From Pseudomonadota bacterium (GTDB taxonomy: Bacteria > Pseudomonadota > Alphaproteobacteria > Paracaedibacterales > CAITNM01): 64,000 nucleotides of DNA. Shown in pieces: positions 23,473 to 28,807 of the stretch. The stretch spans positions 32,541-96,540 of the forward strand of contig JAGOSL010000002.1 of NCBI GenBank assembly GCA_018062345.1. The letters run 5' to 3'. Every line of letters starts with the position of its first letter. Position 1 is the first letter of the stretch. Under the pieces are notes generated by a model. That model saw only the letters and a list, made by a program, of their open reading frames with translations. It made no database searches and was not told the origin of the DNA. Both the position numbers and the translations under genes were made by a program.

Positions 23473-24714
23473 ATGTTTTTTACAATAATTTTGAAAATTT
23501 GGTCGTTAATAATACAAATTAGCGCTCCCTTTCTGATTTTGATGCGCTTAAAAAAAGGGTTAGAGAGCCCAGTTCGCTACAAAGAAAGATACGGGGTTAC
23601 AGATATACGACGCCCCCAAGGAGATTTGATATGGTTTCATGGGGCAAGTGTCGGGGAAAGTCTTTCTATACTGCCGTTGATCCAAAAAATCACGGAGCAT
23701 TCTCCCGCAACAAACTTTTTGTTAACAACGACAACTACAGCCGCGCAAAAAGTTTTAAATTCTAGAATTAATAAAAACACCATTCATCAATTTGTTCCAT
23801 TTGATGCAATTCAATGGGTTAATAAATTTCTTGATCATTGGCAACCTAAAGCTGTTTTCTTTATTGAATCAGAAATTTGGCCAAATATTTTGTGGCAAAC
23901 GAATTTGAGAAATATTCCCATAACATTGCTTAATGCACGTTTGTCAGAGACTAGTTTGATTAATTGGTTACGGGTCAAAAAAATTTCTAAAAAAATGTGG
24001 GGTTGTTTTTCTGGCATATACACACAAAGTGATCTATTTACCGAGAGATTTCATAAGCTAGGAGCGATAAACGTTAAGACGATTGGCAATATAAAACTTT
24101 TGAGCGAAAAATTGCCTTTCGATGAAATTGAGTTTGCATATTGGAAAACGCAAATGAAAGACCGTTTGTGTTGGGTTGCGGCTAGTACTCATGAGGGTGA
24201 AGAGGAAATAATTTTTAAAGTGCACCAAGCATTAAAAAAAGATTTGCCAAACCTTTTAACGATTGTTGTGCCTCGTCATGTTGATAGATGTGAGAAAATT
24301 ATTTCAAAAGCAAAAGATGTGAAAATTTCTAGATTTACTGAAAAAAATTTACGGGATGAAGACATTTTGCTGGTTGATGCAATGTCTAAGTTGGGAATTT
24401 TTTATCGTTTAACTGCGATTGCTTTTATTGGGGGGTCATTAGTGCCTGTTGGGGGACATAATCCTTTAGAGCCTGTTATGCTTGGGGCGTTTCCTTTGTG
24501 GGGTCCATACTTTTTTAATGTTAATGATATGATGTATCTGTTTGATTCAATACAATGCCAACAAAAAAGTGTTGACCAGTTAATTGATACCTTGAGAGAT
24601 TTCTTAAAAAATCCAGAAAAAATTAAAAATTTAAATGATGAGTTGCAGCAGCGGGTGGCAAGCAGTCAGCAACTCATTGACCAAAAAATTGACGAGATTT
24701 TTATGGCTATTTAG
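23473..24714 (+). CDS. waaA: Kdo transferase WaaA
   Basis: IWFHGASVGE, ESEIWPN, NARLS, AASTHEGEE, VPRH, GGHNPLEP. Confidence 0.95.
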   Translation: MFFTIILKIWSLIIQISAPFLILMRLKKGLESPVRYKERYGVTDIRRPQGDLIWFHGASVGESLSILPLIQKITEHSPATNFLLTTTTTAAQKVLNSRINKNTIHQFVPFDAIQWVNKFLDHWQPKAVFFIESEIWPNILWQTNLRNIPITLLNARLSETSLINWLRVKKISKKMWGCFSGIYTQSDLFTERFHKLGAINVKTIGNIKLLSEKLPFDEIEFAYWKTQMKDRLCWVAASTHEGEEEIIFKVHQALKKDLPNLLTIVVPRHVDRCEKIISKAKDVKISRFTEKNLRDEDILLVDAMSKLGIFYRLTAIAFIGGSLVPVGGHNPLEPVMLGAFPLWGPYFFNVNDMMYLFDSIQCQQKSVDQLIDTLRDFLKNPEKIKNLNDELQQRVASSQQLIDQKIDEIFMAI

Positions 24715-25294
24715 AGCTTCTTAGCTCTAGTTGTTTTTTAGTGCGCTTTGCCAGGTTTAATACCCACTCTTCTGCTGCAACATGAGTATTAAAGCAATTG
24801 TATGCTTGATGGCTTTCTTTGATTGAAAATTTTGTCCAGAATTTACCCATATCATCTTCCATAATATATGCTACGGCCCCTAGATCAGGAAAAAGAGGTA
24901 TTTTTATCGACTTTTCAGTAAAAAGAGAATTTGAAACAGTGATAAAAGTAATTTTTGGTGATTGGTTACATTCAGATTGTTCAGCAATAGAAATTCTAGA
25001 GTGACTGGAAAGAGAAGTGGTGGAGCTAAAGTTACTTTCTACGGTTGTGTCTTCCGAAGTGGCTGACTTTTTTAATTTAAAAAAATTAGTGATTGGAGGA
25101 ATAGTTTTTGCAATTTGTGTTCGACTTAATCTTCTTTTATTTTTAGGCTTATCAGTTTCTTTGGTGCTCAGCCTTCTTTTATTGGGGTTTATGTTCTCAA
25201 TTTCCACGGCTGTTAAGTTGATGCGATCTGCACCTAAGAATATGGCAAAAAAAAGAACTAAATTTTTTACAGGAACATTACCAGAATAAAACAC
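24707..25294 (-). CDS. Hypothetical exported protein
   Basis: 195-aa ORF (GTG start), hydrophobic N-terminus LVLFFAIFLGA, repeated NKRRLS, Ser/Thr-rich linker. No family recognised. Confidence 0.65.
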   Translation of the reverse strand: MFYSGNVPVKNLVLFFAIFLGADRINLTAVEIENINPNKRRLSTKETDKPKNKRRLSRTQIAKTIPPITNFFKLKKSATSEDTTVESNFSSTTSLSSHSRISIAEQSECNQSPKITFITVSNSLFTEKSIKIPLFPDLGAVAYIMEDDMGKFWTKFSIKESHQAYNCFNTHVAAEEWVLNLAKRTKKQLELRSSK

Positions 25295-25370: not shown

Positions 25371-26171
25371 TTAAATTTTTAGATTGTTTTTCTTTTCCAG
25401 TTTTTTTTCTAAACGATTTAGTTGTTTTTGTAGATTTTTAAGAAGCAATAACTGTTCTGAATCATCATTGTTGAAAATCTCCTCTTCTGCTGCTTGCAAA
25501 GCGCCCACAACAACACCAATAAAAAGATTGAGAACGATAAAAACCATCAATACATAGAATGATATAAAATATATCCATGCATATTTTGCTACTTTTTCGA
25601 TTGATCGCATTATATTTGCCCAATCATCACCGGTTAATACTTGAAACATTGTTTTCATGGAAATTCCGATATGTTGGAATTCTGAAGCGCCAAGATCACG
25701 AAAGATAAATACGCCTAGTACTGAATATATATAAAAGAATAATAAAAGGAGGGATAATACACTTATAACACCTGGGATAGCTTTCCAGAACCCACTAAGA
25801 ATATGCCGTACTTTAGGGGCAGCATCTATCATTTCCAGTAAATGTATAACACGAATAACTCGAAGCAGTGGCAAAAAGTCATGTTGATGAATTAGCGATC
25901 CACCAACAATAATTAAGTCAAAAATGTTCCAACCACTACGGAAAAATGATGATCTACCAGCCAATAATTTGATGGTTAGCTCTACAACGAAAACACCCAA
26001 TATAAACTTGTCAATATGGTGCAGCATTTCAAGCACATAGGCAGGGGTGTTTTGGAAAGTTTGCACGCCAAGAACCATAGCGTTAACGAGAACAATAAAA
26101 CCAATAAAATAATGTCCGGGTTTAGATTCTAATAGCTCGTAAATTTTTAAAAATTTTTTAAAGAACATCAT
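25371..26171 (-). CDS. Voltage-gated cation channel (BacNav-like ion transport protein)
   Basis: 6TM architecture: WNIFDLIIV (S3), S4 LRVIRVIH, P-loop TMFQVLTGDDW, S6 FIVLNLFIGVVV, C-terminal coiled coil. Confidence 0.9.
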   Translation of the reverse strand: MMFFKKFLKIYELLESKPGHYFIGFIVLVNAMVLGVQTFQNTPAYVLEMLHHIDKFILGVFVVELTIKLLAGRSSFFRSGWNIFDLIIVGGSLIHQHDFLPLLRVIRVIHLLEMIDAAPKVRHILSGFWKAIPGVISVLSLLLLFFYIYSVLGVFIFRDLGASEFQHIGISMKTMFQVLTGDDWANIMRSIEKVAKYAWIYFISFYVLMVFIVLNLFIGVVVGALQAAEEEIFNNDDSEQLLLLKNLQKQLNRLEKKLEKKNNLKI

Positions 26172-26215: not shown

Positions 26216-26989
26216 TTAATTTTTTGTAACCATTAGCTTTTTTATATTTCCAATAGCTTTTGCTGGATTTAAGTTTTTTGGGCACGTATTTGTACAATTC
26301 ATAATAGTATGGCAACGATATAAGCTAAATGGGTCCTCGAGTGCTTCTAGGCGTTCTTTTGTTTTTGTGTCTCGGCTATCTGCAATGAAGCGATATGCTT
26401 GTAGCAAGGTTGCAGGTCCTAAATATTTTTCACCATTCCACCAGTAGCTGGGGCAGGCGGTAGTGCAGCTAAAGCAAAGGACACATTCCCAAAGCCCATC
26501 TAGCTTAGCTCTGTCTTGCTGGCTTTGTTTGCGTTCACGCTTTGGGGTGTCGCTATTTTGCACCCAAGGCTTAATAGACGCATACTGGCTAAATGCATGA
26601 CGTAAATCTGGAACAAGATCCTTCATTACTTGCATATGTGGAAGTGGGGTGATTCGTATTGGGCCTGAAATATCATCAACGTGTTTTATGCAAGCAAGTG
26701 TATTCGTGCCGTCTATATTCATAGCGCAACTGCCGCACACACCTTCACGGCATGAGCGTCTGAAAGTAAGTGTGCTATCGATTTTATTTTTGATATACAG
26801 CAATGCATCTAAAACCATTGGGCCGGATTCTTTAATGTCGATGGTGAATTCATCCATGTGAGGATTTTTTCCATCTTCAGTGTTCCATCGATAAATATAA
26901 AATGTACGCATTGATGATGAAGTGCTAGAGGACTTGAATATTTTTCCCTTTTGAATTTTTGAGAGTTTAGGAAGACGTAATTGAACCAT
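26216..26989 (-). CDS. sdhB: Succinate dehydrogenase iron-sulfur subunit
   Basis: [36 protein letters not shown] clusters. Confidence 0.98.
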
Positions 26990-27028
26990 AATGTCCTCTT
27001 GTGTTTAGTGAACTATATACGAGCATGG

Positions 27029-28807
27029 TTAATAAATTCTTTTTTGAGGTGGAATTGCCTCAACTTCATTGGTTAGGGTGTGTGTATGTACCGGGCGTTT
27101 ATCAAGCTTGATATTGTATTCTTCATTACACCAAGAAAGAGTATGAGCAAGCCACGATGTATCATCGCGGTTGGGGAAATCTTCTCTGGCATGACTACCA
27201 CGACTTTCAGTACGGTAAGCTGCTGAATGAATTGTGGTAATTGCTTGAAGCATTAAATTTTGTAATTCCAGAGCTTCTACTAAATCTGTGTTCCAAATTA
27301 ATGACTGATCATTAACCAGAAGATTATTTAGATTTTTGGCACATTGAGATAATTTTTCTTTACCTTCTTCTAGACTTTCTTGGGTTCTAAATACACCGCA
27401 ATGATTCTGCATGATTTGCTGCATTTCAGTTCGGATACTGCCAGTTAACATGTTCCCATTTGCGAAGCGAGTTTTGTTAAAGCTAGAGAGAATTTTATCT
27501 GTGATATAACTATCAAGTTTTTTATGCGGTGATCCTGCTTGAATAACTTCTTTTGCGCGTAATGCTGCAGCTCTTCCGAAAACGACTAAATCTAACAAAG
27601 AGTTTGTACCCAAGCGATTTGCGCCATGTACTGAGACGCATGCTGCTTCGCCTATGGCCATCAATCCTTGAACAATTGTTTCTTGTGAATCTTTTGTTAC
27701 TTCACCGTGGTAATTGGTAGGAATTCCGCCCATGTTATAATGCACAGTTGGTTGTACGGGGATAGGCTCTTTGCTGGCATCAATGCCTGCAAATACGCGT
27801 GCTGTTTCATGCATACCGGGTAGGCGTTCGGCTATAATTTGGGGATCCAAATGCTCCATATGAAGCATGACAATATCTTTGTTTGGGCCGCAGCCACGAC
27901 CTTCTTTTATTTCAATTGCAATTGCTCTGCTTACCACATCACGTGATGCTAGATCTTTTGCGTTTGGAGCATATTTTAACATGAAGCGTTCATTAAGGCT
28001 GTTGGTTAAATATCCTCCCTCGCCGCGTACTGCTTCTGAAATCAAGCACCCTGCGCCGTAAATGCCGGTAGGATGAAATTGGATAAATTCCATATCGGCT
28101 AACGGTAAACCAGCTCTAAGTGCCATTGCATTGCCATCACCCGTGCAAGTATGAGCTCCGGTGCATGTAAAGAAAGTTCGTCCGTGTCCGCCTGTTGCCA
28201 GAACCACCATGTGCGCGTGAAAGCGATGAATGGTACCATCATCTAAACACCATGCAATTACGCCACGGCATACACCTTGATCATCCATTAGTAAATCGAG
28301 GGTGAAATATTCAATAAAAAACTCTGTATTGTGGCGCAAGCATTGTTGATAAAGTGTATGTAAAATTGCGTGGCCAGTTCTATCAGCTGCAGCGCAGGCA
28401 CGTTTTGCCATTGATTTTCCGTGATCAATTGTATGACCGCCAAACTGACGTTGGTAAATATTTCCATGCTCATCACGTGAAAATGGCACCCCCATGTGCT
28501 CAAGTTCAATGACCGCATCAATAGCATTTTTGCACATATATTCAATAGCATCTTGGTCGCCCAACCAATCAGAGCCTTTGACAGTATCGTAAAAGTGATA
28601 GCGCCAATCATCTCCGTCACTAGTATTGTTTAGGGCAGCTGATATGCCTCCTTGGGCAGCAACTGTGTGACTTCGTGTTGGAAAGACTTTAGTAATGCAT
28701 GCAGTTTTTAGGCCTGCCGTACTCATACCAAGGCTTGCTCGTAGTCCTGCTCCTCCGGCTCCTACTACGACAACATCAAAAAAATGATCAGTAATTGAAT
28801 AGGTCAT
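27029..28807 (-). CDS. sdhA: Succinate dehydrogenase flavoprotein subunit
   Basis: [20 protein letters not shown]-His motif, QFHPTG, HYNMGG, HGANRLG. Confidence 0.99.

Follow-up and report, generated by a model that had tools for sequence, protein, structure and literature searches.

The closest described relatives of the channel reported here are the bacterial sodium channels NavMs (Magnetococcus marinus), NavAb (Arcobacter butzleri) and NaChBac. Each consists of a single repeat of six transmembrane helices (6TM) of around 270 amino acids, with a charge-transfer centre in the voltage sensor, a P1-filter-P2 pore layout, an asparagine in S6 and an acidic neck followed by a C-terminal coiled coil. 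Their filter is of the type TLESWSM and their S4 helix carries four gating arginines (R-R-R-R). To our knowledge, CavMr of Meiothermus ruber is the only native prokaryotic Cav channel measured so far. Among eukaryotic channels, CatSper is comparable to the present channel in several features that are either seen or predicted here: one-repeat subunits, reduced S4 charges, weak voltage dependence, a pH sensitivity that depends on His and a Ca2+ filter built on Asp. CatSper differs, however, in that it is a heterotetramer of eukaryotes, associates with many auxiliary subunits and has the filter T-x-D-G-W, and no phylogenetic link to it was seen. CavMr and NavPp, of the AnclNav group (Shimomura et al. 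2020, PMC7041947), are likewise native prokaryotic one-repeat channels, with Cav-like filters other than TLESW. The remaining relevant filters are engineered. The permeability ratio PCa/PNa of wild-type NaChBac is 0.15, compared to 35 for the filter LEDWAS, which has one extra Asp at HFS+1, and 133 for LDDWAD (PMC2229573). The last filter is that of CaChBac, and its NavAb counterpart CavAb carries TLDDWSD. For NavAb, PMC10120453 quotes a gain of around 100-fold upon the change from TLESWSM to TLEDWSM.

Here, we describe a natural channel with a DDW filter, encoded in a window of 64,000 nucleotides (the whole stretch of DNA that was analysed) from a genome of 1.46 Mb (31 contigs, 99.8% complete). 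The features of the gene are collected in Table 1. In a Pfam search, PF00520 (Ion_trans) covers residues 20-230 of the protein (4.4e-41, 141 bits) and PKD_channel is a weaker second match; no NCBIfam model matches. One-repeat relatives in the PDB align end to end, namely NavMs (5hvx, 1.6e-44, 156 bits), NaChBac (6vwx) and NavAb/CavAb. The lowest whole-sequence E-values of that search belong to four-repeat Cav channels because their four repeats add up, each repeat reaching at most about 68 bits. An AF2 model built on 37 homologues (mean pLDDT 84.7) contains the helices S1-S4, the S4-S5 linker, S5, P1, P2 and an S6 that continues into a long C-terminal helix, with S4 (helix 100-117) as the region of lowest confidence (pLDDT 63-73). 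All top 50 Foldseek matches of this model are NavMs, NavAb, CavAb, NaChBac or NavAb chimeras, with a probability of 1.00 for NavMs and NavAb; NavMs has the same fold (1e-12) at 33-35% identity. With one S1-S6 repeat, a P-loop and a length in the class of about 250-300 amino acids, the protein belongs to the BacNav superfamily. The C-terminal neck and coiled coil of this superfamily are recognisable both in the sequence, with an acidic neck at residues 229-239 and heptad leucines at 244, 247, 251, 254 and 258, and in the model, where S6 and the tail form a single helix (198-264). Pfam, the PDB relatives and the fold thus agree with the original prediction of a native single-repeat channel, which we infer from the neck and coiled coil to assemble as a homotetramer.

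Table 1. Features of the channel gene and its neighbourhood (nucleotide positions in the window; residue numbers of the encoded protein).
Feature	Position	Strand	Description
Channel gene	25371..26171	(-)	Intact open reading frame, 266 aa, ATG start; single 6TM Ion_trans repeat and C-terminal helix
S1-S2 of voltage sensor	25938..26123	(-)	Q37 for the canonical S1 Glu (NavAb E32); H51/H52 at outer S2 end; F61, E64, K68 kept (charge-transfer centre and inner counter-charges); from column statistics
S3	25893..25934	(-)	Invariant W81, N82, D85 (inner negative cluster), followed by the His-rich S3-S4 loop H95-Q-H97
S4 helix LPLLRVIRVIHLLEMIDA	25821..25874	(-)	R104, R107, H110 (R3), E113 (R4), D116; from alignment columns
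S4 motif LLRVIRVIHLLEM	25830..25868		Residues 102-114
Selectivity filter T180-G-D-D-W-A-N186	25614..25634	(-)	Equivalent to NavAb T175-M181, constant offset 5
S6 pore-lining helix	25488..25580	(-)	Invariant N215; M209/V210 in place of the canonical Thr/Thr
C-terminal tail	25374..25487	(-)	Acidic neck (AEEE...DDSE) and heptad-repeat coiled coil; putative BacNav-type tetramerisation tail
sdhA and sdhB	26216..28807	(-)	Directly upstream, same strand; 44-bp gap from sdhB to channel start
Orphan open reading frame	24707..25294	(-)	195 aa, downstream of the channel gene

Both motifs on which the original prediction was based are present in the translation, TMFQVL-TGDDWAN at residues 174-186 and the S4 motif as listed in Table 1. 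We take NavAb numbering to run at the same constant offset throughout the filter, in agreement with the alignment offsets, so that G181 corresponds to L176, D182 to E177 (the HFS site), D183 to S178 and N186 to M181; likewise, Q37, E64 and D85 are taken as the equivalents of E32, E59 and D80. In a MAFFT alignment of 110 homologous loci, R104, R107, H110 and E113 occupy the R-R-R-R columns of 57 TLESW channels, as expected from the predicted gating positions R-R-H-E. Opposite the same four residues, repeat II of Cav3.2 has R, R, R and K (HMMER alignments). Canonical channels have L (40/47), E (44/47) and S (33/47) in the filter columns and R-R-R-R in 45-47 of 47 rows, whereas the window protein has TGDDWAN in place of T-L-E-S-W and R-R-H-E in place of four Arg. 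It also differs from NavMs, NavAb and NaChBac by a Gln for the outer S1 Glu, D116 for Ser, conserved His at 20, 51/52, 123 and 167, and M209/V210 for the Thr-Thr of the cavity. Within its subclade, characterised by R-R-H in S4, the residues G181, D182 and W184 are invariant, D183 occurs in 38 of 42 sequences (N otherwise) and H110 in all 42. Since filter and H110 are conserved across the subclade, their combination is, judged by these alignments, not a chance pattern.

The homologue search returned around 45 clusters with the motif F-Q-[VI]-[LM]-[TS]-G-D-[DN]-W that rank before the first canonical TLESW matches. In a maximum-likelihood tree of 123 rows, the x[G/M]D[D/N]W filters form a clade of 68 rows (100% SH-aLRT, stem length 0.81) with two subclades, one with S4 R-R-R-Y (23 rows) and one with R-R-H-[S/A/T/E] (44 rows). 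A whole natural clade therefore carries DDW, a core that the original prediction knew only from engineered channels. Two extended trees between them took in 28 eukaryotic Cav/Nav repeats as well as five AnclNav sequences (CavMr, NavPp and three others), which stem from the source data of PMC7041947. All bacterial one-repeat channels split from the 28 eukaryotic repeats in both trees (support 99). The TGDDW clade falls on the NavAb-like side, as sister to a group from the same order with L[C/G/A]D[D/E]W filters and an RRRR S4 (99 and 94 in the two trees). CavMr, NavPp and the three AnclNavs form their own clade (98) away from the query, to which they are 25-32% identical (CavMr 25%, NavPp 29%). 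The phylogeny against BacNav and CavMr that had been proposed as a check thus nests the clade in the NavAb-like BacNavs, apart from CavMr and the AnclNavs, and the window protein is, on this sequence evidence, a single-repeat channel of the NavAb-like lineage. Membership of the AnclNav/CavMr group was rejected because of this separate clade and because position 4 of the filter is Asp, compared to Gly in the CavMr filter TLEGWVD; CavMr further differs by its single acidic ring and its RRRR S4.

The same trees bear on a second possible origin, in which a eukaryotic host was the donor of the gene, either as a one-repeat channel like Cav repeat II/IV or as an EukCat-like one. Filter positions 1-5 resemble Cav repeat II (TGEDW), as originally claimed, and Cav3 repeat IV (TGDNW), with a shared Thr-Gly-acidic-Asp/Asn-Trp order and a similar P1 helix (FQ[VI]LTG.DW). 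Over the whole P-loop, FQVLTGDDWANIM resembles FQILTGEDWNAVM of Cav2 repeat II and FQVSTGDNWNGIM of Cav3 repeat IV, and the hosts are protists. Yet, Cav repeats sit in four-repeat asymmetric pores, the deep branches mentioned above separate them from the bacterial one-repeat channels including this clade, and no single Cav repeat comes near the full-length score of NavMs. Moreover, DDW occurs together with RRRR and a Leu at position 1 in the sister group from the same order, a combination indicative of stepwise evolution within bacteria. A eukaryotic origin was rejected on the basis of both trees and is considered highly improbable; the filter likeness to Cav repeats II and IV is, on this phylogeny, convergent. 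Because the L[C/G/A]DDW sister channels are still RRRR, the trees place the DDW filter first, inside bacteria, and the remodelling of the voltage sensor later. The corresponding S4 series reads from RRRR over RRRY and RRH[S/A] to RRHE, with Glu at R4 appearing three times (in the query and P0002, in P0004 and in P0024).

Two further observations concern the wider sequence set. In other families of the same order (loci L102-L108 and L111), the filters read LCDEW, LCDDW, LGDDW, LADDW or INDNW with a full RRRR in S4, and thus have Leu or Ile at position 1 compared to a near-universal Thr/Ser. A protein of 757 amino acids (P0249) contains two complete S1-S6 units, each with a TGDSW[A/S]E filter and the S4 LRLMRAFRVFRLFKRL, with a linker of acidic low-complexity sequence between them; this protein resembles a tandem channel of two repeats and may be eukaryotic.

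In a tetramer, the filter would present two stacked rings of four Asp, with D182 at the HFS site and D183 at HFS+1, and the Gly at position 2 would widen the inner filter. A high-affinity site for divalent cations would result, a prediction from sequence in which we have fair confidence. Positions 3-4 match engineered CavAb and CaChBac, which share the Asp at HFS and HFS+1; the present filter differs by its natural occurrence, by Gly instead of Leu at position 2 and by Asn instead of Asp at position 7, and it is combined with a remodelled sensor. At micromolar to millimolar Ca2+, the channel would be Ca2+-permeable or Ca2+-selective. The host cytosol contains around 0.1 µM Ca2+, at which the filter would be largely Ca2+-free and conduct monovalent cations, while during micromolar Ca2+ transients in the host, Ca2+ would either enter or block. 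Our main reading, to which we assign a probability of roughly 55%, is that the gene encodes a functional, NavAb-like, tetrameric cation channel with a Ca2+-permeable or Ca2+-selective pore and shallower voltage gating.

The native Ca2+ preference that was originally proposed is suggested by the DDW core shared with CavAb and CaChBac, but the filter alone is insufficient to establish it, as NavPp variants and NavAb L176G illustrate. Ca2+ selectivity is plausible, with Ca2+ block of a monovalent current as a serious rival. In the latter case, the protein would be a Na+/K+ channel that is blocked rather than permeated by Ca2+, like NavPp: the double Asp ring and the cavity at Gly-2 would trap hydrated Ca2+, and rises of host Ca2+ would shut a resting cation conductance. 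NavPp (TLEDWTD) and its T6A and T6S variants, with filters like or equal to those of CaChBac and CavAb, are Na+-permeable and Ca2+-blocked (PMC7041947, PMC8677417). NavAb L176G, which carries the Gly-2 of the clade, and L176A become prone to block by divalent cations because an additional cavity filled with water retains hydrated Ca2+ at the inner site (Site-IN); this block is partial, reaching only half in L176G, and that at 40 mM Ca2+ (PMC10349818). An Asp at HFS+1 is described in PMC10120453 as yielding 'calcium-selective or a sodium conductance blocked by calcium'. On the other hand, the clade lies on the NavAb-like and not the AnclNav side of the tree, and in NavAb-like and NaChBac backgrounds DDW substitutions yield Ca2+ permeation (PMC2229573). 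The gene content of the window genome weighs on the side of block. A search for routes of Ca2+ exit that covered Na_Ca_ex and the E1-E2 ATPases found no CaCA exchanger, for which 11 of 14 control genomes match, and no P-type ATPase, hence no Kdp, Cu or Ca pumps, whereas all 14 controls match. Sustained Ca2+ entry would then have no known exit, which argues against a large sustained influx and accords with a channel that keeps Ca2+ out. The cation homeostasis of this genome is, in general, unusually bare. Altogether, we regard the Ca2+-blocked channel as a serious possibility, albeit a less likely one than the main reading.

Regarding the voltage sensor, the reduced S4 charge that had been predicted is evident, with only two Arg and a conserved His. 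The description as charge-reversed is correct for the window protein itself, which has Glu at R4, but does not extend to the group: E113 is lineage-specific, each of its three appearances lies on an Ala/Ser background, and position 113 in the subclade is S in 21, A in 14 and E in four of 42 sequences, with T in the remainder. The conserved features of the sensor in the alignment are the loss of R4, the replacement of R3 by His and an acidic residue at 116, one turn further down. Derived states of the whole TGDDW clade comprise R113 to Y or S/A/T/E, S116 to D/E, E37 (the outer S1 Glu) to Q or L, R/K123 to H, T154/K155 to V/F (in the RRH subclade; V/L in RRRY), T209/T210 to M/V and N223 to G. 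Other states are specific to the RRH subclade, namely R110 to H (42/42), M192 to E, H51 (36/42), H52 (30/42), K173, the His-rich S3-S4 loop (95-97) and H167 in the turret. H20 is common to the TGDDW clade and the L[C/G/A]DDW sister group (7/7) and, in these sequences, marks the whole DDW group and not the TGDDW clade alone. By comparison, F61, E64, K/R68, W81, N82, D85, R104, R107 and N215 are kept in all channel groups. When set against the counter-charges of NavAb (E32, N49/D, F56, E59, R63, D80), F61, E64, K68, D85 and D54 are kept, while the E32 equivalent is Gln37 (in 35/42 of the subclade). As the inner counter-charges and the hydrophobic plug are kept while the outer counter-charge and two S4 charges are lost, these changes look like the coordinated remodelling of a working sensor and not like decay.

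With an intact charge-transfer centre (F61, E64, K68, D85), two Arg and a titratable His at R3, and with R4 and the outer S1 Glu lost, the main reading implies a gating that is voltage dependent but shallower, with a shifted G-V curve, since less gating charge is expected from two Arg and a His. Modulation by pH or a metal (Zn2+) is plausible via H110 and the periplasm-facing His (H51, H52, H95, H97 and H167). The same residues could also be taken to mean that the sensor is blind to voltage, in which case the protein would be pH-, metal- or ligand-gated, or its sensor fixed 'up' or 'down', leaving a leak or chemically gated channel. The clade-wide loss of R4, His at R3 in 42/42 of the subclade, the loss of the outer S1 Glu, the acidic residue at 116 and the conserved periplasm-facing His all speak for this, and in CatSper and TPC2 fewer S4 charges go together with weak or absent voltage dependence. 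However, strong purifying selection has left F61, E64, K/R68, D85, R104 and R107 with little or no variation, as would be the case for an S4 that still travels through the charge-transfer centre, and Hv1 gates with three S4 Arg. A voltage-blind channel is therefore judged doubtful.

A BacNav-like gene (E <= 1e-10) occurs in 42 of 62 genomes of the order, representing 15 of 20 genera, and the TGDDW/RRH type occurs in 10 of 14 genomes of the window's genus. The other four congeneric genomes (G011, G014, G015 and G018), although 94-99% complete, contain no BacNav-like gene, so the channel is dispensable and was lost repeatedly within the genus. Among 401 genomes sampled evenly from the class, matches from outside the order stay at or below 40% identity, and none of 27 inspected loci from this class-level sample has a GDDW filter. 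In the genomes sampled, the x[G/M]D[D/N]W clade thus appears confined to one order of protist endosymbionts (Holosporales-type). Among the matches listed, the named relatives closest to the protein come from a MAG named 'uncultured Candidatus Finniella sp.', of the genus group of the window (73% identity), and from Caedimonas varicaedens (61%). Both belong to the Holosporales, family Paracaedibacteraceae or nearby. The Holosporales-type relatives are endosymbionts of cercozoans, ciliates and amoebae that are mostly cytoplasmic or intranuclear, and the described Finniella species are protist endosymbionts (PMC11909080). Around 20 metagenomes of freshwater, lakes, wastewater and sludge, produced by many different studies, contain the same DNA. 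Two further loci deserve mention. One is a BacNav-like gene, 36% identical to the query, in a 1.4-Mb genome of another alphaproteobacterial family (L128, G066:C25:14710-15372); its filter reads MVYDDYGT, without Trp, and its S4 LRTFRVIHSLHM has R-R-H-H, so it may represent a second small-genome lineage with an Asp-Asp filter and His at R3. The other is a TGDDWTN/RRHS channel on a 41-kb contig labelled 'MAG: Janthinobacterium lividum' (JBPBPI010000085.1). Janthinobacterium has a high G+C content, to which the 40% G+C in the 10.8 kb read of this contig is unfit, so it is probably a mis-binned Holosporales-like contig.

Given the reduced genome of 1.46 Mb and the absence of the gene from 4/14 congeners, the protein might also be viewed as a decaying BacNav remnant whose odd S4 and filter result from drift. 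The reading frame is intact, however, and the pairwise dN/dS of the window gene and its congeners is 0.05-0.13 (dS 0.75 to more than 2), on the basis of which pseudogene decay was rejected. In addition, 27 columns are invariant across 37 sequences of 36-89% identity, and different families of the order have become fixed for the same derived residues. Drift is accordingly the explanation to which we give the least credence.

The channel gene converges on waaA, and the order sdhAB-channel-waaA is kept in nine genomes (with channel copies at least 73% identical), eight of which belong to the window's genus. No terminator-like site lies in the gap between sdhB and the channel gene, and co-transcription with sdhAB is possible. 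Around the channel gene, neither a sigma-70-like promoter nor a terminator signal exceeds shuffled sequences, and no clear Shine-Dalgarno sequence precedes it. RNA-type libraries from four independent studies contain short contigs that match parts of the gene at 97% identity or more, and one of these contigs extends from sdhB to 33 nt beyond its stop codon. These matches are short assembled contigs of metagenomic libraries, which could include DNA, and hint at transcription of the gene. The 3' end of the orphan open reading frame overlaps the stop region of waaA. Its C-terminal part has homologues of 38-40% identity between sdhB and the channel in congeners (L001 4245-4889, L085, L086, L088), and from these differing positions it follows that this reading frame moved across the channel gene within the genus.

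In the searchable literature, no relevant paper treats 'TGDDW' as a channel filter, and no sequence in the sets of the CavMr study (PMC7041947) has GDDW. A 2025 review on the Holosporales of 220,000 characters mentions neither ion channels nor calcium (PMC11909080). As far as sequences can tell, the new elements are a clade that is restricted, in the sampled genomes, to one endosymbiont order and placed inside the NavAb-like lineage, and a loss of S4 charge that is conserved, follows an order and includes His at R3. Structural explanations of Ca2+ selectivity are based largely on engineered CavAb, and CavMr follows a different filter logic. A natural clade under purifying selection, which combines a CavAb-like DDW core with the Gly of Cav repeat II in a crystallisable NavAb-like lineage, is hence well suited for asking whether nature makes use of the engineered mechanism and which part position 2 plays. 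The series from RRRR to RRHE, with counter-charges changing in step, similarly bears on how much S4 charge a working sensor needs.

A more far-reaching and rather speculative idea is that the protein is a dedicated, lineage-specific Ca2+ channel by which Holosporales endosymbionts read Ca2+ and pH transients of their host with a proton-tuned His sensor. The DDDD/DDDD filter would then bind Ca2+ in the sub-micromolar to micromolar range, H110 might shuttle H+ as R-to-H Shaker mutants do, and feeding, ciliary reversal or passage through a phagosome would be sensed as membrane current or Ca2+ entry. If true, this would amount to bacterial eavesdropping on eukaryotic Ca2+ signalling and to a second, independent origin of prokaryotic Ca2+ selectivity. 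The original proposal that the channel could report entry into an acidic vacuole or the low-Ca2+ host cytosol is likewise conjectural. Channel biophysicists and symbiosis researchers may both find the clade of interest, although the functional claims are drawn from sequence. The members of the order are obligate intracellular symbionts of reduced genome size that live at around 0.1 µM Ca2+, and around two-thirds of the genomes sampled keep the gene. This retention, together with the missing Ca2+ exporters of the window genome, suggests that membrane excitability or the sensing of cations plays a part in symbiosis that has gone unrecognised.
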